A DNA stretch of 24,000 nt from Methanoculleus sp. UBA430. Lineage in GTDB: Archaea > Halobacteriota > Methanomicrobia > Methanomicrobiales > Methanoculleaceae. The translations under genes and the position numbers were made by a program. The stretch's first letter is position 1. Each line of letters starts with the position of its first letter. Below, piece after piece: positions 5,341 to 14,903 of this stretch. Location: positions 70,385 through 94,384 of the forward strand of contig NZ_DAXW01000016.1 in the NCBI RefSeq assembly GCF_002506585.1, written 5' to 3'. The notes under the pieces are model-generated. The model was not told the origin of the DNA. It saw only the letters and a list, made by a program, of their open reading frames with translations, and did not search any database.

Positions 5341-5579
5341 CCGTTCAATTAAGAATCTTCGGAGAGAAGTGATAAAGGTATTTGAGAGCGCGCGGGGTGG
5401 GAAATTGTGGCGTTCGTGCGGGTTCCCGGTTCTTCTATGGGGTCTGTGGTCCTCGTGCGGCGGGCTGGGACGTTCCGGCAGCGAAGGGCCGGGCATATCG
5501 ATTTTTGGGTGAATCTACGCGGACAGCTCGGGAAATGATCAAAAACGCCTGTGAGTTCGCTGACGATGCCGGGTATATA

Positions 5580-5810
5580 TCAGAATCCATAGATCTCAGC
5601 GAGGCTGCGCTCGCAGAAGCGCCTTGCCGGTTTGTATATCTGCTCGATACTTTTGAAGAAATCTATGTCCCACCCATGCTCGTTTTGTGCAATCCGCCCC
5701 TTGAAGACGCCTCCTGCGATTTCTTCCAATCCCTCTTCAATATAAACGGCAGCGGGCTGATCTTCCTTTATGCCGTGTTGCATTAACGTGCTTAGACGCT
5801 GGAACTCCAT
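5580..5810 (-). CDS. Hypothetical small protein (76 aa) in the low-GC island
   Basis: This ORF sits on the same strand as the ORF at 5825-6076, 14 nt downstream of it. In a sampled stretch (5641-5700), minus-frame codon position 1 is purine-rich (14/20) against 7/20 for the competing plus-strand ORF. I recognise no motif. Confidence 0.4.
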   Translation of the reverse strand: MEFQRLSTLMQHGIKEDQPAAVYIEEGLEEIAGGVFKGRIAQNEHGWDIDFFKSIEQIYKPARRFCERSLAEIYGF

Positions 5811-5824
5811 CGAGACCGACTGGA

Positions 5825-6076
5825 TCAGGTAATGCTCATCCTAGTATCCTTTATAGGTCCGTCTTCGGTCCCGGGATCCAGTCTGCCATAGTAATCTTCA
5901 GAGATCCTGGCGTTCAGGTAGCCGTATGCCCGCAGGTAATCTCTCAGTGCAAGAAGGTCCCTCTTCCGTGACTGCTGGAATGAGCCATATATTGCGATAT
6001 TGGTATTTTCCTTGAAATACCTGTATAGTTGAACCCGGCCTGCAATTTCGCTGGGTATCGGGTCTCTATGGCTCAT
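5825..6076 (-). CDS. Hypothetical small protein (83 aa) in the low-GC island
   Basis: The ATG is at 6076, with an AT-rich TATA-like 'cgttatgtat' (minus strand, about 6099-6108) some 25-30 nt upstream. The segment 'NIAIYGSFQQSRKRDLLALRDYLRAYGY' looks like a beta-strand/helix start of a Rossmann-like fold, but I cannot assign a family. Confidence 0.45.
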   Translation of the reverse strand: MSHRDPIPSEIAGRVQLYRYFKENTNIAIYGSFQQSRKRDLLALRDYLRAYGYLNARISEDYYGRLDPGTEDGPIKDTRMSIT

Positions 6077-6114
6077 TTGACAGGTTTTCGTCTGTGGGAT
6101 ACATAACGATTGAA

Positions 6115-6130
6115 GTTGCAGAAGTGCAAC
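6115..6130. promoter_or_regulatory. Perfect 6+4+6 palindrome GTTGCA-gaag-TGCAAC between two divergent promoters; candidate operator
   Basis: Read directly from the sequence. It lies between the TATA-like box of the minus-strand gene (about 6099-6108) and the TATA-like 'atataa' (6151-6156) of the wHTH gene. Confidence 0.3.
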
Positions 6131-6194
6131 TGATGATCCGGGAAAGATTGATATAAGTTACAATAATAGAACTATTCACTATGGAGGTGTCGGC

Positions 6195-6716
6195 ATGGAC
6201 CGGACAGTTGTAGAGGCTCACTTAAACCGGGTGCCCGTTGAGGTTCGTGAGTCCGTGATGGAACTCTCGTCGGATGCCAGATGGGCTGTATACATAGCGC
6301 TTGCACTCGGGGAGGAGATGTACTTCAACGAACTCAAGGATACCTTCGGGGCGAATCCTAGCGAGATGGACCGTATCCTGAAGTCTCTGGTTGACGGGGG
6401 CCTCATCGCGAAGAAGGTGAGGAGGCTGGAGGACGTCGGCGATCGGAGGAAGGTGTATTACACATCGACAGACTATGGAAAAAGGATGCTAAACGCCCTG
6501 TGCGGCGTGGTGCTTCCTCCCGAGAGCCTGGTCGGGCAGTATAAGCCCACTTCGAGCGATAGCGGAAAGTCCTGCACCCTGCATACGGGAGCGGTAAAAG
6601 GAAGCGGTGAGACCAATCCCGAGAACTGGCGATTCGACCGGACACCTGCCGGAAGGGACGCCTTCAATACGAAACCGACACTCACCGGCGCAAAGCAGGC
6701 AGAGACCAGGGTGTGA
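6195..6716 (+). CDS. Winged helix-turn-helix transcriptional regulator (ArsR/archaeal wHTH type) with a low-complexity C-terminal tail
   Basis: The wHTH pattern is 'ARWAVYIALALGEEMYFNELKDTFGANPSEMDRILKSLVDGGLIAKKVRRLEDVGDRRKVYYTSTDYGKRML' (helix-turn-helix plus a beta-hairpin wing). A strong SD 'ggaggtg' at 6183-6189 sits 5 nt before the ATG. TATA-like 'atataa' is at 6151-6156. Confidence 0.75.
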   Translation: MDRTVVEAHLNRVPVEVRESVMELSSDARWAVYIALALGEEMYFNELKDTFGANPSEMDRILKSLVDGGLIAKKVRRLEDVGDRRKVYYTSTDYGKRMLNALCGVVLPPESLVGQYKPTSSDSGKSCTLHTGAVKGSGETNPENWRFDRTPAGRDAFNTKPTLTGAKQAETRV

Positions 6717-6723
6717 GTTCAAC

Positions 6724-7020
6724 ATGGCTGCAGAAGACCCGGAGCAAGCGTTGAAACTTGAGATCGTGATGGACCCTGAGTTCAGGACGGTTCACATCGA
6801 CGGCGCTATCGTAACGCTAAACCCGAACTTCGGCCAGCTGGCACTGACCTACGATCAGCCTGAATTCAAAATCAGTCCGAACGGGGATATTTACACGGAT
6901 AAAATTCAAAAGAGGGTGATACTTGATGCACGGTTGTCGCCCGAGGCATTCAGGGCACTCGCCTGCACCATGATGGAGCATCTGCAGCAATACGACGAGT
7001 GGCTCAAGCAGCGGAAGTGA
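6724..7020 (+). CDS. Hypothetical 98-aa protein, co-transcribed with the wHTH gene (possibly DUF3467-like)
   Basis: The ATG at 6724 is 7 nt after the wHTH stop. The upstream part of the 137-aa track ORF overlaps the wHTH gene out of frame and is Arg/Pro-rich. The layout 'KLEIVMDPEF..VHIDGAIVTLNPNFGQLALTY...KRVILDARLSPEAFRALACTMMEHLQQYDEWL' reminds me of DUF3467 proteins. That comparison is from memory and was not searched. Confidence 0.55.
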   Translation: MAAEDPEQALKLEIVMDPEFRTVHIDGAIVTLNPNFGQLALTYDQPEFKISPNGDIYTDKIQKRVILDARLSPEAFRALACTMMEHLQQYDEWLKQRK

Positions 7021-7024
7021 ACTA

Positions 7025-7044
7025 CCCCGCCCTTCAGGGCGGGG
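7025..7044 (+). terminator. Perfect GC hairpin CCCCGCCC-ttca-GGGCGGGG followed by a T-rich 'cttcctgttt'
   Basis: Read directly, 5 nt after the stop at 7018-7020. It lies in the convergent gap towards the methyltransferase gene, so it could act in both directions. Confidence 0.45.
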
Positions 7045-7150
7045 CTTCCTGTTTCACCCTCCCTCTATTGAGGCAGGTCCTCAGGCTCTACGGCGCTGAT
7101 CCGTCACCTGCCAATACGCCGACAGGGTTCTCTCTCGTACAGCAAACAGG

Positions 7151-7876
7151 TTAGATCACTCTGGCAATCATTTGAATGAGATTATAGTAGTTTCCGTTTT
7201 CAGCCTTCCTCATCTTTATGTCTTCCTCGATCCCCTCCCAGTACGCGGTATGCCATTCATCCCACGCCTGGTTACAGCAGAGCATCTCGCGGATGTCAAG
7301 TATCTCAATGCCCTTTTCCCTGCTCCATAGCTCCTTCCACCAGTCAAGGGAGTGTATGGTCCTTGCCACCTCATCGTTCCAGAACGGCTTCATCTCGTCA
7401 GGGACATTCTCCCCGAACTCATACTTTATGCCGGGAATCGCCACGGCAATATAGCCGCCTTTCTTCACGAAAGGAATGAGCGACGGAAGCATCTCCTCCG
7501 TATCGCCGAAATGATGGTAAGCGTCCACGCTGAACAGCAGATCAAAGTATCTGTCTGCGAAAGGCAGCCCCTTAGTCGCGTCTACGGAGATCGGAACGGC
7601 CTTATCGTCAATCCCGAGAGATCGGAAACGCTCGTAGTTTTCAGTCGGCGAAATCCAGAGGTCGGCGGCGAAGACGGACGCGCCGTATTTTTTCACCAGA
7701 AACAGCGTGGATAGACCCTGCCCGCAGCCGAGGTCGAGGACTCGCATATTCTCATCGATCTTCAGGTGCGACGACAGTTCCTCTGACACCCGCATGGCGT
7801 TCGGCCCCATCATCGTGGCTTTCAGGAACTCGACATTTTCAGCGTTAGACATGAACCGGTCTGTAAATGGATACAT
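7151..7876 (-). CDS. Class I SAM-dependent methyltransferase (small-molecule type, Methyltransf_11/25-like)
   Basis: Motif I is 'VLDLGCGQGLSTLFL'; 'FDLLFSVDAYHHF' and 'VKKGGYIAVAIPG' follow. There is no (D/N)PP(Y/F) DNA-methylase motif. GC is markedly lower than in the flanks (sampled lines 35-52%). Confidence 0.8.
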   Translation of the reverse strand: MYPFTDRFMSNAENVEFLKATMMGPNAMRVSEELSSHLKIDENMRVLDLGCGQGLSTLFLVKKYGASVFAADLWISPTENYERFRSLGIDDKAVPISVDATKGLPFADRYFDLLFSVDAYHHFGDTEEMLPSLIPFVKKGGYIAVAIPGIKYEFGENVPDEMKPFWNDEVARTIHSLDWWKELWSREKGIEILDIREMLCCNQAWDEWHTAYWEGIEEDIKMRKAENGNYYNLIQMIARVI

Positions 7877-8229
7877 GATATTCTTCCTTTCTCATTTTCG
7901 CCTTATATCTCTTATCAGATTTTTAATCGCTCATTTATTCCGGCTCCCGGTGCACCCGGACCCCGTAGATGGGCGCCCCCGCGGCCGGCACTGCGACGCG
8001 GACCGCCGGGAACCATGTCGGGTCGGGGAGGCAGCACTGCCCGACGGCTTTTGCGGTCATCGGGAGGCTGAGTGCCGGGACAGCGACGAAGAGACGGATT
8101 CCCGTAGATAATTGGGACCCCTAAGTCGCAAGCATCAACAACCCCCGTCCGCCCCGGTCTCACATCCCCCACGCCGCGTAGGATGAAACTGTTAACCCCC
8201 CGGACGCCCCACATAAAAGGCATTCAGCC

Positions 8230-9138
8230 ATGATCACCTTCCTCTCGGCCGGGCCCGGGGCGCTCCCTCTCATCCGGGGCGCCCGGCAGATCCTCTACGA
8301 TTCCGAGATCGCCGTGGTCGCCTCCACCGCCGGGAACTGCACGGTCTCGGGGAGCCACGTCGCTCCCGAAACTGATACGGCCGTCTACCTCTTTGCCGGC
8401 ATCCTCGATACCGGCCGGTGGTGGGGGATCAAGGGGGACACCTACGCCACCCACAACTACCTCCCGAAGGTCGGGGGCGGCGAGCCCTTCCCGGTCGGCG
8501 ACCGGGCCCGGGCCGTCCAGATCGCCCGGGCGGGACTTCTCTCGCAGGGGATGAGCCTCACGGAGGCGGTCGGGGTCCAGTGCCGGGCGCTCAACATCGG
8601 GGCGACCGTCCTCCCGGCGACCGACGCGGAGGCCTCCGTCCTGGTCGATACCGGGACCGAGCGCCTCCCGCTCTTCACCTACCGGACGGCCGCCGGCAGC
8701 GATACCGAGGTGCGGGAACTCATCCGCACCGGACCCGCTCGCCCTCCGGTCACGGACGAGGTGCGGGCGGCGATCGAGGAAAGCGACGCCGTGGTCATCG
8801 GCCCGGCGAACCCGGCAGCAAGCGTCCTCCCCATCCTCGACTGCGAGGGGATGCGCTCTCTCCTTTGCGATGCCTTCGTCGTCGCGGTCTCGCCGTTCCG
8901 GGGCGACGTCGCGGCTGACCAAAAGGACGCCGCCCTGATGTACGCCGCCGGCGAGAAACCGACATCGCCGGGGGTCTTCCGGCTCTATGGGGACTTCGTC
9001 GACGTCTTCGTCCAGAGCCTCCACGACCCGGACCAGGTCGCGGGCTCGCTCCGCCTCGAGACCCGCCTCCTCCACGAGCGGCAGGCCGAGTCGCTCGCCT
9101 GGGACATCATGGCGGTCATCCGGCAGACGGTTTCGTAA
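8230..9138 (+). CDS. CofD-family paralog (2-phospho-L-lactate transferase-like) with degenerate N-terminal substrate-site motifs
   Basis: The 302-aa ORF is colinear with the downstream CofD, gap-free over at least the first 67 residues. Shared blocks are 'MITFLS', '[15 protein letters not shown]', 'SDAVVIGPANP' and 'VAVSPF'. It reads 'SAGPGALPLI' where the partner has '[10 protein letters not shown]', and 'VVASTAGNCT' where the partner has '[10 protein letters not shown]'. Confidence 0.8.
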   Translation: MITFLSAGPGALPLIRGARQILYDSEIAVVASTAGNCTVSGSHVAPETDTAVYLFAGILDTGRWWGIKGDTYATHNYLPKVGGGEPFPVGDRARAVQIARAGLLSQGMSLTEAVGVQCRALNIGATVLPATDAEASVLVDTGTERLPLFTYRTAAGSDTEVRELIRTGPARPPVTDEVRAAIEESDAVVIGPANPAASVLPILDCEGMRSLLCDAFVVAVSPFRGDVAADQKDAALMYAAGEKPTSPGVFRLYGDFVDVFVQSLHDPDQVAGSLRLETRLLHERQAESLAWDIMAVIRQTVS

Positions 9139-9211
9139 ACCGGGTGCGGTGTACTTCCCGGCATAATTGGTAAATTACATATACGGTTGTACCAGATACG
9201 CTAATTATCAA

Positions 9212-10114
9212 ATGATAACCTTCCTCTCGGGCGGAACCGGGACCCCGAAGCTCCTCCGCGGCATGCAGGAGTTGCTGGACGAGCGGGAGATCGCCGTCGT
9301 CGTCAACACAGCCGAGGACACGTGGCTCTCCGGCAACCACCTCTCACCCGATATCGATACGGTCATGTACCTCTTCGCGGGCATCCTCGATACCGGCCGG
9401 TGGTGGGGGATCCGTGACGATTCCTACATCACTCACGACCTCCTCGCGAGACTCGGCATCGAGGAGTTCATCGCCGTCGGGGACCAGGACCGGGCGGTCC
9501 ACGTTGCGCGCGGGGAGATGCTCCGGAGCGGCGTGCGGCTCACCGAGGCGACCACGACGCTCTGCAGGAGGTTGGGGGTCAAGGCTACCATCCTCCCGAT
9601 GACCGACTCTGTCGTGACGACCTACGTTCGCACCCACCGCGGAGAGATGCACTTCCAGGAGTACTGGGTGAAGCACCGGGGAGACGTGGCGATCGAGGGT
9701 GTCTTTCGGCGGTTCCGGGAGCCGCCCGTCGCGACCGCCGAGGTTATCCGGGCGATCGAGGCGAGCGATGCCGTGGTGGTCGGACCGAGCAACCCGGTCA
9801 CGAGCATATCGCCGATCCTCGAGTGCGCCGGGGTGCGGGAGGCGCTCCGCAACAAGCGCGTCATCGCCGTCAGCCCCTTCATCGGCGACGCGCCGGTCAG
9901 CGGCCCGGCGGCGGCCCTGATGCGGGCCTTCGGAAAAGAGGCCTCATCCGCCGGAACCTGCAGCCTCTACGAGGACTTTGCGGATCTCTTCATCCAGGAT
10001 ATCCGGGACCCGGTCGGGCTTCAAGGGGCTCTCCGCCTGGATACCCTCATGGTCAACCGGGGCAAGAGTCTCGACCTCGCAAAGACCATCCTGACCTTGA
10101 TCTACGGGTGCTGA
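9212..10114 (+). CDS. cofD: LPPG:Fo 2-phospho-L-lactate transferase CofD (coenzyme F420 biosynthesis)
   Basis: It has the canonical '[17 protein letters not shown]', 'VVNTAEDTW', '[11 protein letters not shown]', '[15 protein letters not shown]' and 'AVSPFIG'. I place the start at the ATG at 9212, which parallels the paralog's start. The 15 upstream codons of the track ORF lie in an AT-rich promoter-like spacer. Confidence 0.9.
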
Positions 10115-10119
10115 CCCGA

Positions 10120-10509
10120 TCACTCTTTCTTCTGTTTCTCCCGGTAATCCTCGATCGCCGCGTGGAGGGCATCCGCCGCGAGGTTCGAGCAGTGCATCTT
10201 CTTTGGCGGCAACCCCTCGAGTTCGGTCGCCACATCGTCGCGGGTGATCTTCAGCGCCTCCTCAAGCGTCTTTCCCCTGGCCATGTCGGTCACCATGCTA
10301 CTCGTGGCTATTGCCGATCCGCACCCGAACGTCCTGAACCGGATGTCCTCGATGACGTCGTCCTTGACCTTGATGAAGATCTCCATGATGTCCCCGCAGA
10401 CGGGGTTGCCGACCTTGCCGTAGCCGTCCGGGTTCTCGATCACCCCGACGTTGTGCGGGTTCATGAAGTGCTCCATCACTTTCTGGCTGTAGCCGATCTG
10501 GTCTGCCAT
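10120..10509 (-). CDS. iscU: Fe-S cluster scaffold protein IscU/NifU-N
   Basis: The 129-aa protein begins 'MADQIGYSQKVMEHFMNPHNVG'. Cluster ligands are intact: 'NPVCGD', 'FGCGSAIA', 'KMHCSNLA'. The ATG at 10509 is 13 nt after the iscS stop, and the longer 184-aa track ORF overlaps iscS. Confidence 0.9.
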   Translation of the reverse strand: MADQIGYSQKVMEHFMNPHNVGVIENPDGYGKVGNPVCGDIMEIFIKVKDDVIEDIRFRTFGCGSAIATSSMVTDMARGKTLEEALKITRDDVATELEGLPPKKMHCSNLAADALHAAIEDYREKQKKE

Positions 10510-10522
10510 ACCTCTTACCTCT

Positions 10523-11677
10523 CTATAACGGTGTAATAGCCCGGAGGCGTTTAACTGTTTCTCCGACTGCCCCGACGATTCGTGGCACCTCGTCCATGCT
10601 GTTTCTGCGCCCGAGCGTCGCGACCATCGACCCATGCGCCTCGGCGTGGGCGAGCCCGATGGCGAGGAGGACATGGGAGGCTTCGAGTGTCCTGGAAGTG
10701 CACGCCGACCCGGTGGCGACCGCGATCCCGAGCATGTCCATGGCGAGCTGGATGCTCTCGCCCTCGATCCGGGAGAAGCGGAAACTCGCGTGGTGCGGGA
10801 GGCGCTCTTCCGGGTGGCCGGTCAGGTAAGCCTCCTCGATACCCGTGATCCCGGCAATCAGCCGGTCCCGGATCGCGGCAAGGCGCTTGCTCTCCCCGGC
10901 CATCTCCTCCCCTGCAAGCCGGGCCGCCTCCCCCATACAGGCGATCGCAAAGACGTTCTCGGTCCCGGGCCGGAGGCCGCGCTCCTGCCCGCCCCCGACG
11001 AGGACCGGCTGGACCCGGACACCGGGGCGGATGTAGAGCGCCCCGACCCCGTCCGGTCCGCCGAGCTGGTTTCCGGAGAGGGTGAGAAGGTCGATGCCGT
11101 CACGCTCCACGTCGATCGGTATCCTCCCCGCGGCATCGGTGGCGTCTACGTGGAGGAGCCCGCCCTGTTCGTGGACGATCGCCGACACCTCCCGGATCGG
11201 CTGAATTGTCCCTATCTCATTGTTTGCGTGGTGGATCGATGTGATGACGGTCCCCGGTGTGACCGCCGCTGCGAGGGCATCGAGGTCGATCGTGCCGAAG
11301 CGGTCGACCGGAGCCAGCGTGAGGGCAAACCCGCCCTTCTGGATGTCTTTTGCCGGATTCAGGACCGATATGTGCTCGGTGGCGCTTGCAACGACTCTCT
11401 TCCCGAATTTCCGGTTCCGGAGCGCCGCTCCCCGGATAGCGATGTTGTTCGATTCGGTGGCTCCGCTCGTGAAGATGATCGAGTCCGGGGCGCTCGTGCC
11501 GACGAGCGCTGCCACCCTCTCCCGCGCCGTGGCGACGGCCTCCTGTGCCTGGAGCCCCTCCCGGTAGATCGTGGAGGGGTTGCCGGCAAAGCCGTCCGGA
11601 AACTGCCTGCAGAACCGGGCGACCCCCGGGTGGACCGGCATCGCCGCTGCGTGGTCGAGGTAGATCCGTTCCTCCAT
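10523..11677 (-). CDS. iscS: IscS/NifS-family cysteine desulfurase homolog lacking the PLP-binding lysine
   Basis: It is colinear with E. coli IscS as I recall it: 'IYLDHAA', 'FTSGATESNN', 'ATEH', 'HANNEIGTIQPI', 'HVDAT', 'GGGQERGLRPGTEN', 'GSACTS'. The SGHK motif reads 'SGNQ' (N203 at 11069-11071, Q204 at 11066-11068). I place the start at the ATG at 11677 (MEERIYLDHAA), which avoids overlap with the dsrE-like gene. Confidence 0.85.
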   Translation of the reverse strand: MEERIYLDHAAAMPVHPGVARFCRQFPDGFAGNPSTIYREGLQAQEAVATARERVAALVGTSAPDSIIFTSGATESNNIAIRGAALRNRKFGKRVVASATEHISVLNPAKDIQKGGFALTLAPVDRFGTIDLDALAAAVTPGTVITSIHHANNEIGTIQPIREVSAIVHEQGGLLHVDATDAAGRIPIDVERDGIDLLTLSGNQLGGPDGVGALYIRPGVRVQPVLVGGGQERGLRPGTENVFAIACMGEAARLAGEEMAGESKRLAAIRDRLIAGITGIEEAYLTGHPEERLPHHASFRFSRIEGESIQLAMDMLGIAVATGSACTSRTLEASHVLLAIGLAHAEAHGSMVATLGRRNSMDEVPRIVGAVGETVKRLRAITPL

Positions 11678-11690
11678 CTTCTCCAGCCTC

Positions 11691-12050
11691 TCAGAACGTG
11701 ATGACCGCGTCAGCATCGACCGCAAGATCGTTCAACGTCAGGGCGCCGACGACCTTCCCTTCCTCGATGAAGTCCCCCCGCTCAAGCCCGAGGAGCTGGG
11801 TGCTCTGCTCGCAGATGTAGATCTTTGCCCCCGCGGCGATCGCCTGGTCCCGCATCTCCGAGAGTTTCGGGAAGTTTCCGGCCTGGATCTGCTCTGCTGC
11901 GCCTCTCTTGACGACCGTCACCCCCTTGATCATGAAGTAGATGTCGGCGTCCATGTCCATCGAACGTGCCGTCATTGCGAGAACGAACGGCGCATACAAC
12001 CTCTCCGGGGTGTCGGCGCCGCTCGTCTGGATATACAGTATCCGTGCCAT
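11691..12050 (-). CDS. DsrE/DsrF-family sulfur-relay protein (COG2044-like)
   Basis: The 119-aa ORF has 'ILYIQTSGADTPERLYAPFVLA', 'DADIYFMIKGV' and the conserved Cys80 in 'KIYICEQS'. It sits in tight operon context with the TusA genes. Confidence 0.75.
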   Translation of the reverse strand: MARILYIQTSGADTPERLYAPFVLAMTARSMDMDADIYFMIKGVTVVKRGAAEQIQAGNFPKLSEMRDQAIAAGAKIYICEQSTQLLGLERGDFIEEGKVVGALTLNDLAVDADAVITF

Positions 12051-12055
12051 ACATC

Positions 12056-12286
12056 TCAGCCCCGTTTTTGGATGGAGAAGGTGGTCTTCTCCCCCTCCCT
12101 CTCCTCGCCCAGGATTTCGTGGCCCATCCTCCGTGCCCAGACCCTGACATCCTCCTCTGTGGGCGCGTTGTCCATCTCGACCTTCAGGATGCCACCGCTG
12201 ACGAGCCCGTCCATCCCCTCCTTGAGCAGGGTGATCGGCGCCTGGCAGTAGGCTCCTCTCGCGTCCACGTAGCCGTCGGCGTCCAT
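12056..12286 (-). CDS. tusA: TusA/SirA-like sulfur carrier, copy 3 (variant CQAP motif)
   Basis: The 76-aa ORF reads 'YVDARGAYCQAPITLLKEGM...ILKVEMDNAPTEEDVRVWARRMGHEI', which matches the TusA fold pattern. The Cys is retained, but the first Pro of CPxP is Gln. Confidence 0.75.
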   Translation of the reverse strand: MDADGYVDARGAYCQAPITLLKEGMDGLVSGGILKVEMDNAPTEEDVRVWARRMGHEILGEEREGEKTTFSIQKRG

Positions 12287-12290
12287 CCGC

Positions 12291-12551
12291 TCACCGTGCC
12301 TCTGTCGTGGCCGCCGCTCCCTTGCGCAGGATGAGTGTGGTCACGCCCGAGGCGACGTGCTCCTCCTCGATCGTATGTCCTTTCTCACCGGCCCAGGACC
12401 TGACCGTCTCGACAAGGTCCGGTTTGTCGGTTGTCACCTGCAGGATCTGGCCTGCGTTGAGCACGTCCATCCCGGTCTCGATCGAGAGCATGGGCGACTG
12501 GCAGATGCCCACGCAGCTCACGGTCTTATCCGCATACATCATTCGTATCAC
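12291..12551 (-). CDS. tusA: TusA/SirA-like sulfur carrier, copy 2 (variant CQSP motif)
   Basis: The 86-aa ORF reads 'VSCVGICQSPMLSIETGM...ILQVTTDKPDLVETVRSWAGEKGHTI'. Possible starts are 12551, 12542 or 12539. The first abuts the upstream stop with a 0-nt gap. Confidence 0.7.
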   Translation of the reverse strand: MIRMMYADKTVSCVGICQSPMLSIETGMDVLNAGQILQVTTDKPDLVETVRSWAGEKGHTIEEEHVASGVTTLILRKGAAATTEAR

Positions 12552-12806
12552 CTACTTCATCTTCCGGATGCAGAACCTCATGACCCCGTCATCCTTCTCG
12601 AACTTCACGATCTCATGACCCACCCGGTCTGCCCAGCGCCGGATATCCTCCTCCGCGGCAGGATCGTCTGCCTCGACCATGAGCACCTCTCCGATGTCGA
12701 GCTTCTCGATTGCCTCTTTTGTCATCGTGATCGGCATGGGGCAGTAGAACCCGATACAGTCCACGACCGCCATGGGTTTATCTTTCAGATCCATGTCCGT
12801 TACCAT
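12552..12806 (-). CDS. tusA: TusA/SirA-like sulfur carrier, copy 1 (canonical CPxP)
   Basis: The 84-aa ORF reads 'VVDCIGFYCPMPITMTKEAIEKLDIGEVLMVEADDPAAEEDIRRWADRVGHEIV', a canonical TusA signature. Confidence 0.8.
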   Translation of the reverse strand: MVTDMDLKDKPMAVVDCIGFYCPMPITMTKEAIEKLDIGEVLMVEADDPAAEEDIRRWADRVGHEIVKFEKDDGVMRFCIRKMK

Positions 12807-12887
12807 CCGTTGTGGGGCGCGTGGGAACCCGGGTGCCGTGACGTGTCAACGGTACACTCCCGGTTGCACCGGATCATGCACCCTCCC

Positions 12888-12893
12888 TTATAA
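12888..12893 (-). promoter_or_regulatory. TATA-like box (TTATAA) for the tusA-dsrE-iscSU operon
   Basis: This is the only AT-rich hexamer in the 12807-12900 spacer, about 82-87 nt upstream of the ATG at 12806. It lies 8 bp from the left IS target duplication. Confidence 0.3.
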
Positions 12894-12900
12894 GCGTTCC

Positions 12901-12908
12901 TCCGGAGG
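12901..12908. repeat. Target-site duplication, left copy (TCCGGAGG)
   Basis: It is identical to the 8-mer at 13947-13954 and directly abuts IR-L. Confidence 0.75.
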
Positions 12909-13946
12909 TGCAGTGTTGCATAACTCTGCTTCTTCGACCCAAACAGAAAAGGTGCCGGACGTCCCTTCCGCCCCTTCATGCCAAGAACCGAACGTTGGGG
13001 ACGCCCGTACCCTGACAATCGCGACTGGAGTATATATAATACACTCCTGGTCAAGCGCGGCGAGTTTTACCTTTCTTTGGACTTCATTGATCGGTGGGAT
13101 GAGCATCTCTCCCAGATGAACGCCGGCAAGCGTGGTCGGCCGTTTCAGTATCCTGAGTCATTCATTGCGTGGATGGTCGGGATTCACACCTTCCTGCAGA
13201 TGCCCTACCGCCAGATGGAAGGATTTGTCCGGAGACTCGCAGCATTCATTCCCGGCCTCAAAGCAGCCGATTATACCACGCTCTTCCGCCGGATCCAGCG
13301 TCTCGATCTCTCGTTACCGGTTGTTCCCGAGCTCCTCGGTGAGGATATCATCGTCGCCGCGGATAGCACCGGGATCAAGGTCACGAACCGGGGGGAGTGG
13401 ATGCGCGAGAAGTGGCGGGTCAGCCGCGGTTGGATCAAACTGCACGCCATGATCGACGTCGAGACCAACCAGGCTCTCGGACTGGAGATCACCGATGAAT
13501 CCGTACAGGATGACCAGATGTTCATCCCGCTCCTCGACCAAACCCAGCAGCACGGGAGCGAGGAACATCCGGTGTACCGGGTGCTCGCCGATGGCGCCTA
13601 CGACCGGAACGAACTCTTCAACACCCTCGAACAGCGGAGGATCGCCTCCGGCATCAAGACTCGGGTTGATGCCGCGACGCATTCGACCGGGTCGCCCTAT
13701 CGGGCTGAATGTGTTCGAGACCGAAACCGATGGGGCGGATATCCGAGGTGGTCGCGGGTAGTCACGTATGGTATGCGGTGGAAGGTCGAAGGGTTCTTCT
13801 CCGGCTTCAAACGGATCTTCGGGGAAGGAGTACAGGCGACATCGCAGGAGGGCATGTTTCGTGAAATCCGGATGAAGGTGAACTGCTATAATAGAATGCT
13901 GGCTCTGGCAGGAGGACAAGCATCATAGGGATTATGCAACACAGCA
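12909..13946 (+). mobile_element. Intact IS element (1038 bp), IS5 family (ISH1-group-like), with a single DDE transposase
   Basis: IR-L at 12909-12923 is 'tgcagtgttgcataa'. The reverse complement of IR-R at 13932-13946 is 'tgctgtgttgcataa', a 14/15 match. The element is flanked by an 8-bp direct repeat and holds one 316-aa transposase ORF. As I recall, this size and an 8-bp duplication fit the IS5/ISH1 group. Confidence 0.85.
12978..13928 (+). CDS. DDE transposase (IS5/IS4 superfamily)
   Basis: The N-terminus 'WSIYNTLLVKRGEFYL...GKRGRPFQYPESFI...LQMPYRQMEGFVRRL...ADYTTLFRR' resembles IS903/IS5-type transposases. Candidate DDE residues are in 'VAADSTGIKV', 'VLADGAYD' and 'RWKVEGFFSGFKR' (E followed by K seven residues later). 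Confidence 0.9.
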   Translation: MPRTERWGRPYPDNRDWSIYNTLLVKRGEFYLSLDFIDRWDEHLSQMNAGKRGRPFQYPESFIAWMVGIHTFLQMPYRQMEGFVRRLAAFIPGLKAADYTTLFRRIQRLDLSLPVVPELLGEDIIVAADSTGIKVTNRGEWMREKWRVSRGWIKLHAMIDVETNQALGLEITDESVQDDQMFIPLLDQTQQHGSEEHPVYRVLADGAYDRNELFNTLEQRRIASGIKTRVDAATHSTGSPYRAECVRDRNRWGGYPRWSRVVTYGMRWKVEGFFSGFKRIFGEGVQATSQEGMFREIRMKVNCYNRMLALAGGQAS

Positions 13947-13954
13947 TCCGGAGG
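13947..13954. repeat. Target-site duplication, right copy (TCCGGAGG)
   Basis: It is identical to 12901-12908 and directly abuts IR-R. Confidence 0.75.
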
Positions 13955-14282
13955 GGCGTCGACAGGAGGGGATGGGGTCGGCCGGCCCCGGAGGCTCCGG
14001 GAGTCCGACTCCGTGTTCTGCCGTCATGTATCAGCCGGAGAAGACCGATCTCCCCGGTGCGGCGGTCGGGCTCTGTGGGCGCGCACCGTCGCTCTCCCTG
14101 CAGATCCGCAAGAGTTTCCTATCTGGACGGTTCTATCGCCGATTTCTGTTCAGGCTCTTTTGCAGGAGAAGACCGGCGACCTCGATCGTCGTTGCGGTCG
14201 TCCTGGAGCACCGGGGAAACCCTTATTTTTTCGGTTATTTTGCCATTTGCCTGCACATTTTATCTCTAATGGCATATTGGGT

Positions 14283-14331
14283 GAAAATTTTGCTCCGTTC
14301 TCAAATTGTGCTTGTTATTACCGAAAATTTT
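14283..14331. promoter_or_regulatory. AT-rich pdaD promoter region with two copies of GAAAATTTT (14283-14291 and 14323-14331)
   Basis: Read directly. AAAATTTT is self-complementary. The second copy runs into 'ttttaaaaaa', about 25-35 nt before the pdaD ATG, and is a likely TATA box for a short-leader transcript. Confidence 0.3.
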
Positions 14332-14360
14332 AAAAAACTCAAACGATAAGAAGATCCTTA

Positions 14361-14903
14361 ATGTTCGTTCCGACCAAGTGTTTCTTTACGAAGGGTGTGG
14401 GTATCCACAAAGACAAACTGGCGTCATTTGAGCTGGCCCTCCGGCAGGCGGGCATCGAGAAGTACAATCTGGTCTACGTCTCGAGTATCTTTCCTCCGAA
14501 CTGCCAGTTGATCTCGCCAGAGGAGGGTCTAAAGGACCTCTCGCCGGGCAGCATCGTCTACGTCGTCATGGCCCGGAACGAGACCAACGAGCCGAGCAGG
14601 CTCGCCTCAGCCGCCATCGGCCACGCGATGCCCAAGGAGAGCAACGCCTACGGCTACCTCTCCGAGCACCACGCCTTCGGCGAGACAGCGGAAGTCTCGG
14701 GCGAATATGCCGAAGACCTTGCGGCAACCATGCTTGCGACAACGCTCGGCATCGAGTTCGATCCCGACCAGGCGTGGCAGGAACGGGAGCAGATCTACAA
14801 AGCAAGCGGCCGGATCATCAACACGACTCACACCTGCCAGGCGGCTGAAGGGGTTATGGACGGCCGCTGGACGACGGTCATCGCCGCAGCAGTCTTCCTG
14901 TAA
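14361..14903 (+). CDS. pdaD: Pyruvoyl-dependent arginine decarboxylase proenzyme (PdaD)
   Basis: The 180-aa ORF reads '[45 protein letters not shown]'. This is the PdaD-family N-terminus, including the Ser-Ser self-cleavage site ('VSSI'). Confidence 0.9.

Follow-up and report, generated by a model that had tools for sequence, protein, structure and literature searches.

A four-gene TusA-DsrE-IscS-IscU cassette with a lysine-less IscS in anaerobic archaea and some bacteria suggests a cysteine-independent sulfur input to iron-sulfur clusters

The stretch of DNA analysed here, referred to below as the window, comprises 24,000 nucleotides (nt) from Methanoculleus sp. UBA430 (contig NZ_DAXW01000016.1, positions 70,385 to 94,384). 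On its minus strand, positions 10120-12806 hold six open reading frames (ORFs) in the order TusA1-TusA2-TusA3-DsrE-IscS-IscU. A first description made from the letters alone (the sequence-only reading) had taken them for an operon that joins a TusA/DsrE sulfur relay to an IscS/IscU iron-sulfur (Fe-S) module, with an IscS that has lost the lysine for pyridoxal 5'-phosphate (PLP); this variant is written IscS* below. All six ORFs are present at the coordinates reported there:

12552-12806, minus strand: TusA1; Pfam TusA, motif DCIGFYCPMP, likely start ATG 12794
12291-12551, minus strand: TusA2, a Methanoculleus-specific paralogue; Pfam TusA, motif SCVGICQSP, likely start ATG 12542
12056-12286, minus strand: TusA3, a second Methanoculleus-specific paralogue; Pfam TusA, motif AYCQAP
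11691-12050, minus strand: DsrE3-like sulfur-carrier protein of 119 amino acids; Pfam DsrE, single Cys80 in YICEQS
10523-11677, minus strand: IscS* (MisS-like), class-V aminotransferase fold; Pfam Aminotran_5, Gln204 at the PLP-lysine position, Cys326
10120-10509, minus strand: IscU scaffold; NifU_N and TIGR03419, ligand residues and LPPKK motif

The gaps between the ORFs as first called are 0, 4, 5, 13 and 13 nt, as had been claimed. Alignment with orthologues places the likely true starts of TusA1 and TusA2 at ATG 12794 (protein beginning MDLKDKP) and ATG 12542 (MMYADK), so that the first gap is probably 9 nt rather than 0. The family assignments and motifs of the sequence-only reading stand: a Pfam profile search puts all six proteins above the curated cut-offs (TusA, PF01206, 28.6 bits; DsrE, PF02635, 22.7; Aminotran_5 21.5; NifU_N 22), with 85.6, 34.3 and 56.3 bits for TusA1, TusA2 and TusA3, 67.3 for the DsrE-like protein, 227.5 for IscS* over residues 5-365 (PF00266) and 169.3 for IscU, and the segments FYCPMP, ICQSP and YCQAP, Cys80 of DsrE, Cys326 of IscS and the IscU ligands are all found. 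When the window genes were compared with 14-19 other Methanoculleus loci, the median ratio of nonsynonymous to synonymous substitution rates (dN/dS) was 0.19 for TusA1, 0.24 for TusA2, 0.17 for TusA3, 0.10 for DsrE, 0.22 for IscS* and 0.08 for IscU. All six genes are under purifying selection and, given these values, functional; a pseudogene reading was rejected on the same grounds.

Conservation of the arrangement was explored in a survey anchored on the DsrE-like protein, for which 20 homologues were aligned (alignment A1) and one genome per species was scanned across 185,579 species. The scan found 256 DsrE-related stretches, and the best 80 loci were kept; all counts over 80 loci refer to these. 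Their gene content was established by tblastn with the six window proteins and by all-versus-all clustering of every ORF. Four families only recur, DsrE (80 loci), TusA (78), IscS (75) and IscU (70), and by tblastn they follow one another in the order TusA-DsrE-IscS-IscU, on the same strand and closely spaced, in nearly all of the loci. The next commonest neighbour family occurs in 21/80 and is lineage-specific. ORF clustering, used to look for a source of sulfur, a reductase, a transporter or a carrier of clusters, showed nothing beyond the four families in more than 21 of the 80 loci; among the same loci, no HscAB, ferredoxin, IscA or IscR family is recurrent and no gene for TusE/DsrC, MnmA, a MoaD/ThiS-type protein or another acceptor is conserved. 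What is conserved is a cassette of four genes, tusA-dsrE-iscS*-iscU, and the six-gene form is specific to Methanoculleus, the window region being an elaboration of the cassette with three TusA genes in place of one.

The archaeal hosts are Methanoculleus (19 loci), Methanoregulaceae, Methanomicrobiaceae, many Methanothrix/Methanotrichaceae, Methanophagales (ANME-1), Bathyarchaeia and Hadesarchaea; about eleven bacterial bins also carry the genes, WOR-3, Aminicenantes, Krumholzibacteriota, Gemmatimonadota and Chloroflexi/Dehalococcoidales among them, and the Asgard 'Freyarchaeota' appear among the protein-level matches. The closest matches of the DsrE-like protein itself are in Methanoculleus, at 91-99% identity. 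TusA/DsrE and IscS/IscU thus do form the fixed combination that had been proposed, with linkage in 75 of the 80 DsrE-anchored loci and in many phyla, and confinement to the window strain, named beforehand as a ground for abandoning the idea, is decisively contradicted by that spread. What does not extend beyond the genus is the full six-gene order with its CQxP variants: the four-gene core is widespread and TusA2 and TusA3 are genus-level paralogues. The single TusA outside Methanoculleus is the orthologue of TusA1. TusA2 is present in 19/19 Methanoculleus-type loci, with CQSP, CQAP or CEAP, and in 0/61 others; of TusA3, about 12 loci have an intact copy, L007, L011, L015 and L016 a decayed or shortened one, and L014 and L017-L019 none.

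Several loci of the survey have individual features. A Methanosarcinales contig (L074) carries two inverted copies of the cassette, at 5677-7867 and 10858-13049, the second with a disrupted DsrE and a shortened IscS. A Dehalococcoidales locus (L080, 2-1119) has the different order IscU-TusA-DsrE; its IscU bears a Cys-rich, zinc-ribbon-like C-terminal extension, and beside the cluster, on the opposite strand, lies the gene for the [4Fe-4S] enzyme NadA. In a bin labelled Syntrophomonas sp. (L038) the cassette proteins are nearly identical to the Methanothrix versions, and this cassette is probably a binning contamination and not a bacterial copy.

The IscS of the window has Gln204 at the position of E. 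coli K206 (SGNQ versus SGHK in E. coli), and three further E. coli residues are replaced, His205 by Asn, Gln183 by Asp and Arg354 by Val. Its Cys326, in TGSACTS, corresponds to the mobile-loop cysteine C328 of E. coli (SGSACTS). The loss of the lysine, already remarked in the sequence-only reading, proves to be a family trait that extends to the other three residues. None of the 75 linked IscS proteins has a lysine at the K206 position, which is occupied by Asp in 54, Gln in 18 (all Methanoculleus) and Glu in 3. When 191 members of the family are aligned with E. coli IscS, His205 is replaced by Asn in 191/191, Lys206 by Asp, Gln or Glu (the single Lys being that of an engineered D199K sequence), Gln183 by Ala or Asp, and Arg354 by Leu, Val or Ile, while His104, Asp180, Thr76 and Ser203 are kept, as is the loop cysteine Cys328, in 191/191. 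With the lysine, His205, Gln183 and Arg354 lost, IscS* should be unable to make persulfide from cysteine; it appears inactive from its sequence and should not be filed as a cysteine desulfurase. It also falls below every NCBIfam equivalog cut-off, scoring best against the NifS/IscS models (NifS, 400 versus 530.75). The closest solved structure is Archaeoglobus fulgidus IscS2 (4EB5/4R5F, E = 1e-115), whose motif in 4EB5 is SSND, and the signature SxN[DQE] is common to A. fulgidus IscS2 and the window-type IscS*. Of the 150 representatives of 50%-identity clusters that lie nearest to the window IscS, 129 are canonical and 21 lack the lysine; in these 21 the replacement residues are many and different, and most have also lost Gln183 and Arg354.

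The converse association was explored from loci anchored on Lys-less IscS, 5/5 of which have TusA and/or DsrE directly upstream: a DsrE-like gene in A. fulgidus, TusA in Ferroglobus placidus and in a complete Bathyarchaeota genome, TusA-DsrE in an Archaeoglobi-like contig and ferredoxin-TusA-DsrE in a JGI contig. By comparison, TusA/DsrE is found at 0/4 canonical NifS-NifU loci of archaea in which the lysine is present (Aenigmatarchaeota, Parvarchaeota and relatives), and a helix-turn-helix gene lies upstream instead (Fisher's exact p = 0.008). In one of the canonical NifS loci (L089, 3660-5745, a DPANN-like contig) a gene of the 2-thiouracil desulfurase family lies between NifS and NifU, and the NifU_N gene is interrupted by an intein that carries a LAGLIDADG endonuclease. 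The genome of Methanosarcina acetivorans offers an independent control, in that the Lys-less iscS1/iscU1 are flanked by MA0809 ('DrsE superfamily') and MA0810 ('SirA-like') and the PLP-containing isc2 and isc3 are without DsrE/SirA-like flanks, as annotated in the PMC7585200 supplement.

It might be argued that the cassette is a remnant, with the Lys-less IscS an outgoing pseudo-enzyme and the gene order a mark of shared ancestry only. Components have indeed been lost in L019, in A. fulgidus and in L053, and the former lysine position is variable among the more distant Lys-less lineages. Such decay is nevertheless hard to reconcile with a dN/dS of 0.22 for IscS* and of 0.08-0.24 for the other five genes, with a Cys328 that is invariant in 191/191 sequences, with a gene order kept across archaeal and bacterial phyla, or with the fact that A. 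fulgidus IscS-IscU is a defined cluster-bearing complex, and we regard it as very improbable.

Among the putative carriers, TusA1 shares 61-66% identity with the one TusA found in the Methanothrix and WOR-3 cassettes, and E. coli TusA (1DCJ/3LVJ_C) is its best relative of solved structure. Its CPxP motif reads CPMP, and the motif is intact in 77/77 cassette TusA orthologues; in TusA2 (CQSP) and TusA3 (CQAP, 45% identical to TusA1) the cysteine and the second proline are kept and the first proline is replaced. None of TusA1-TusA3 reaches the cut-off of the NCBIfam equivalog models for TusA, YedF or YeeD. A selenium-related, YedF-like reading was rejected, the YedF models scoring far below their cut-offs and no selenium-related gene being linked. 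The cassette TusA proteins have an extra cysteine five residues before the CPxP cysteine (DCxGxxCPxP), present in 76/77, where E. coli TusA has Ala, a previously unreported feature; in the window TusA1 this segment spans residues 13-22 (12741-12770). TusA2 has both cysteines with one residue fewer between them, and TusA3 has lost the first.

The DsrE-like protein has Cys80 as its sole cysteine, invariant in alignment A1. The family profile matches 3MC3 (Sulfolobus solfataricus SSO1125, a DsrE3A protein) with E = 6e-20; at 31% identity to this structure, Cys80 is aligned with the active-site cysteine ('yvCvqs') and so occupies the position of Cys78 in DsrE. An AlphaFold2 model of the protein (predicted local distance difference test score, pLDDT, 87.6) has a TM-score of 0.86 to 3MC3, and further fold matches include 3PNX, 2QS7, YchN, DsrEFH and TusBCD. 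Judged by its nearest structure, the protein would be closest to the DsrE3A subgroup. The IscU carries the ligands Cys38, Asp40, Cys63, His106 and Cys107 and the LPPKK motif, passes the 'NifU_clost' model TIGR03419 (212.4 bits versus a cut-off of 187.9) and is closest among solved structures to Methanothrix IscU 7C8M (about 82% identity), followed by A. fulgidus 4EB5_C; its ligand residues are conserved in 69-70 of the 70 cassette IscUs.

The additional TusA cysteine raises the question of whether TusA and/or DsrE might serve IscS*-IscU as Fe-S cluster carriers, chaperones or iron donors and not as sulfur carriers. With the second cysteine in 76/77 cassette TusAs, a TusA dimer would present four cysteines, and a carrier of this kind would fill a gap in the minimal iron-sulfur (MIS) system, for which reviews give no known carrier (PMC12192291, PMC13066941). 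Against this, the DsrE-like protein has one cysteine only, at the position that carries persulfide in its family, and TusA3 is still under purifying selection without the extra cysteine. No protein of the TusA or DsrE family, moreover, is known to bind Fe-S clusters, and we consider this explanation unlikely.

A protective role, in which TusA and DsrE buffer or detoxify reactive sulfur species such as persulfides and polysulfide in a cytoplasm rich in sulfide, and so spare nascent clusters on IscU without supplying their sulfur, would suit hosts that are all anaerobes from sulfidic habitats and would accommodate the individual loss of accessory genes in some lineages; detoxification has been proposed for the DsrE4 group (PMC11094781). 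The window protein is, however, closest to DsrE3A, a sulfur donor to TusA, and not to DsrE4, and protection leaves unexplained why the association is specific for Lys-less IscS and absent with canonical pairs even within one genome. We give it a low probability.

The same three families, IscS, TusA and the DsrE fold (TusD), make up the E. coli relay IscS -> TusA -> TusBCD -> TusE -> MnmA. There PLP-dependent desulfuration of cysteine releases the sulfur, which moves from IscS outward to tRNA. By parallel with the IscS -> TusA -> TusBCD steps, IscS*-IscU or its Fe-S cluster could be the source in the cassette, with TusA and DsrE as acceptors that serve thiolation targets such as tRNA thiouridine, a molybdopterin or tungsten cofactor, or thiamine. 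Such an outflow would follow the direction of the E. coli relay, and it is in line with E. coli TusA being the nearest solved relative of TusA1, with the IscS-TusA complex 3LVJ and with TusBCD among the fold matches of the DsrE model. The cassette differs in having one DsrE-like gene, no linked TusE or MnmA, an IscS* that is inactive by sequence and IscU as its endpoint, with a flow that would run towards IscS*/IscU. The catalytic lysine, His205, Gln183 and Arg354 are gone across the 191 IscS* members, so that no persulfide should arise from cysteine; the missing acceptor genes noted above (TusE/DsrC, MnmA, MoaD/ThiS-type) also speak against outflow, and the constant partner is IscU, an Fe-S scaffold. 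Outflow is in our view improbable, and it fits the data less well than an inward relay, as do cluster carriage, protection and decay.

Our modest preference is therefore for reading the cassette as an Fe-S assembly unit of iron-sulfur cluster (ISC)/MIS type in which a relay from DsrE to TusA to the IscS* cysteine or IscU would replace PLP-dependent cysteine desulfuration. This proposal draws on the linkage, the loss of PLP and substrate residues, the retained carrier and ligand cysteines, the purifying selection and the DsrE fold; every transfer step in it, its direction and its sulfur source we infer by analogy. In a first step, Cys80 of the DsrE3-like protein would take up sulfane sulfur from polysulfide or from persulfides derived from environmental sulfide, and in a second the sulfur would pass to the CPxP cysteine of TusA. 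TusA would then dock on the IscS* dimer, as E. coli TusA does on IscS, and deliver the sulfur either to the mobile-loop Cys326 or straight to IscU. Finally, IscS* would hand the sulfur to IscU and also provide the fourth ligand of the cluster, an arrangement known from the A. fulgidus (IscS-IscU)2 complex. The sequence-only reading had the sulfur travel from TusA through DsrE to IscS; the order DsrE -> TusA -> IscS is likelier because DsrE3-type proteins donate sulfur to TusA, with DsrE3 -> TusA the preferred direction (PMC11094781), and because E. coli TusA docks on IscS (PDB 3LVJ). A more far-reaching version, on which we put somewhat less than even confidence, would turn IscS* from a PLP enzyme into a transpersulfidase and cluster ligand that receives its sulfur from the relay of DsrE3-like protein and TusA. 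The cassette would then be the sulfur-input arm so far missing from an ISC/MIS-type machinery that does without cysteine, and with it anaerobic archaea and certain bacteria would make clusters on IscU out of environmental sulfide or polysulfide. In that version the C-x4-C pair of TusA, as a disulfide, might capture HS- to form a persulfide; alternatively, as a dithiol, it might reductively release sulfide at the scaffold.

A number of observations weigh against this proposal, the support for which is comparative genomics and analogy throughout. The accessory genes are not all obligatory, and components are individually dispensable in some lineages: four bacterial loci have no adjacent IscU, Ferroglobus placidus and one Bathyarchaeota genome have TusA and no DsrE, and A. 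fulgidus has no adjacent TusA and a DsrE gene without a start codon for the first ~25 residues. This A. fulgidus gene (L081, 5653-5991, AE000782), upstream of iscS2/AF0564, has a stop codon just upstream and is overlapped in another frame by a DtxR-like ORF; it looks like a 5'-truncated remnant. In Methanoculleus methanifontis (L019, 7464-8899) IscS* itself is missing and IscU begins 150 nt past DsrE; TusA1 is degraded and TusA2, DsrE and IscU are intact, and the absence of IscS* reflects either natural loss or faulty assembly. TusA and DsrE proteins carry sulfane sulfur (S0), whereas strict anaerobes see S2-; an oxidising step or a polysulfide source would therefore be required, and the cassette encodes no S2- to S0 step. 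Free sulfide is plentiful in the habitats concerned, and in the SMS (SUF-like minimal) system it can supply Fe-S assembly directly (PMC12192291); in the proteomes of M. acetivorans only IscS2 and IscU2 are consistently detected (PMC7585200). The isotope labelling that traced Fe-S sulfur to sulfide, with which the sequence-only reading had seen a fit, was done in Methanococcus maripaludis, an organism without IscS or IscU (PMC7585200); the cassette cannot for that reason be the M. maripaludis route, and the claimed fit calls for caution.

A close known counterpart is A. fulgidus IscS2-IscU (PDB 4EB5, 4EB7, 4HVK; D199K variant 4R5F), which contains the closest solved relative of the window IscS* and resembles the window pair in the missing PLP lysine, the Asn for His205, the SSN-D/Q signature and the pairing with IscU. 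A. fulgidus IscS is reported to lack desulfurase activity and to lend its cysteine as fourth ligand to a [2Fe-2S] cluster on IscU (PMC7585200 and PMC13066941). In published work the system consists of two proteins, with a sulfur source given as unknown or as free sulfide. It differs in the truncated DsrE and missing adjacent TusA of its locus, where the window and the Archaeoglobi contig carry a full TusA-DsrE module, and in having Asp at the lysine position, which in the window is Gln. M. acetivorans isc1 (MA0806-MA0811; Deere et al. 2020, PMC7585200) contains the same four families as the window cassette, with an IscS1 that lacks the lysine, like A. fulgidus IscS; it additionally encodes a hypothetical protein as well as a HIT protein, its IscU1 is longer (24 kDa), and the window has three TusA genes.

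The MIS system (MisS-MisU; Garcia et al. 2022, as cited in PMC12192291, PMC12442378 and PMC13066941) pairs an IscS-like with an IscU-like protein in anaerobic archaea. It shares with the window adjacent IscS-like/IscU-like genes without HscAB, ferredoxin or IscA, the window pair being of NifS/NifU_clost type. MIS is described with an active cysteine desulfurase and no carrier (PMC12192291 and PMC13066941), whereas the cassette lacks the desulfurase residues and has TusA and DsrE as fixed partners; it behaves as a MIS scaffold pair yet lies outside the definition published for MIS. Among DsrE3/TusA pairs, DsrE3A-TusA of Metallosphaera cuprina and the sHdr-associated DsrE3B/C-TusA are described in PMC11094781; the window DsrE-like protein is nearest DsrE3A (3MC3) in sequence and fold, and tusA adjoins it. 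The pairs of sulfur oxidisers feed dissimilatory sulfur oxidation by sHdr/rDsr, whereas the cassette pair is linked to an Fe-S scaffold in strict anaerobes and its TusA has the extra conserved cysteine. The SUF pathway from SufS-SufE/SufU to SufBCD embodies the same concept of a small sulfur-transfer protein between sulfur source and scaffold, with transfer proteins of unrelated families and with sulfur from a PLP-dependent desulfurase.

Three features lie upstream of TusA1:

12889-12901, minus strand: likely archaeal BRE/TATA (transcription factor B recognition element and TATA box) promoter element AGGAACGCTTATA, invariant in the alignment
12860-12872, minus strand: palindrome CCGGTGCAACCGG, nearly invariant in the same alignment of nine Methanoculleus regions, just downstream of the TATA element
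12909-13946, plus strand: insertion sequence (IS) element of 1,038 bp, between pdaD and tusA1, outside the cassette

The block AGGAACGCTTATA is unchanged in 9/9 aligned Methanoculleus upstream regions and lies about 95 nt 5' of the conserved ATG 12794; by its resemblance to archaeal BRE/TATA elements it is likely to be the operon promoter. Conservation across Methanoculleus extends over about 110 nt of the minus strand (12802-12911), which also contains a second, imperfect inverted repeat, GCCGTTGAC..GTCACGGC. For these 110 nt the RNAalifold covariation term is positive, that is, unfavourable, and thus gives no covariation support for an RNA structure, and an Rfam scan of 9900-14400 matched no family. 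A structured 5' leader RNA was rejected on the unfavourable covariation, and the region is treated as a promoter plus palindrome. With neither covariation support nor an Rfam match upstream of TusA1, a regulator binding site is possible, the palindrome CCGGTGCAACCGG being one candidate. In the IS element, inverted repeats of 15 nt (12909-12923 and 13932-13946) enclose a transposase gene of the DDE type (12978-13928; matches to DDE_Tnp_1_5 and DDE_Tnp_1). The element ends 7 nt upstream of AGGAACGCTTATA, no other Methanoculleus locus has it in the syntenic interval between pdaD and tusA, and it may alter expression of the operon.

On either side lie genes of ordinary housekeeping function: two CofD paralogues, pyruvoyl arginine decarboxylase, aspartyl-tRNA synthetase (AspRS), a MetE-like gene and AcnX/UbiD/UbiX. 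The CofD (2-phospho-L-lactate transferase) paralogues lie in tandem at 8230-9138 and 9167-10114, a pair found in the M. methanifontis locus too; the upstream copy is divergent (74 versus 169 bits in Pfam), with FLSAGPG instead of FLSGGTG as its N-terminal glycine-rich motif. A low-GC island at about 5500-8100 (0.53-0.57 versus about 0.65 elsewhere) contains a weak PadR-like ORF together with a methyltransferase gene and several short ORFs, and may have been acquired horizontally.

In the literature searched we found no functional description of a TusA/DsrE/IscS*/IscU cassette, and the M. barkeri proteomics (PMC10846266) contains nothing on the cassette genes. PLP-less IscS (A. fulgidus IscS2, PDB 4EB5) and TusA/DsrE relays were already known, and a supplementary figure on M. 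acetivorans draws the cassette neighbours MA0809/MA0810, which the paper calls genes of unknown function (PMC7585200). The claim that the module was undescribed thus stands for its functional reading and not for the PLP-less IscS or for the neighbourhood, once drawn; the four-gene cassette, its near-exclusive tie to PLP-less IscS and the functional inference appear to be new within the literature searched.

Where the Fe-S sulfur comes from in strict anaerobes without a working cysteine desulfurase has been an open question since the M. maripaludis labelling of 2010, and the cassette is a concrete candidate pathway for it, as well as for the role of the A. fulgidus PLP-less IscS. Purified components exist (A. 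fulgidus IscS-IscU, Methanothrix IscU), and M. acetivorans, with MA0806-MA0811, is a tractable genetic host that has the cassette. The description of MIS as 'minimal', with two proteins and no accessory factors, is corrected by the cassette, and if the relay is true, Fe-S biogenesis would join sulfur oxidation and tRNA thiolation among the processes served by TusA/DsrE relays. The conservation of the four genes in anaerobic archaea and some bacteria suggests a previously undescribed, cysteine-independent input of sulfur to Fe-S clusters.

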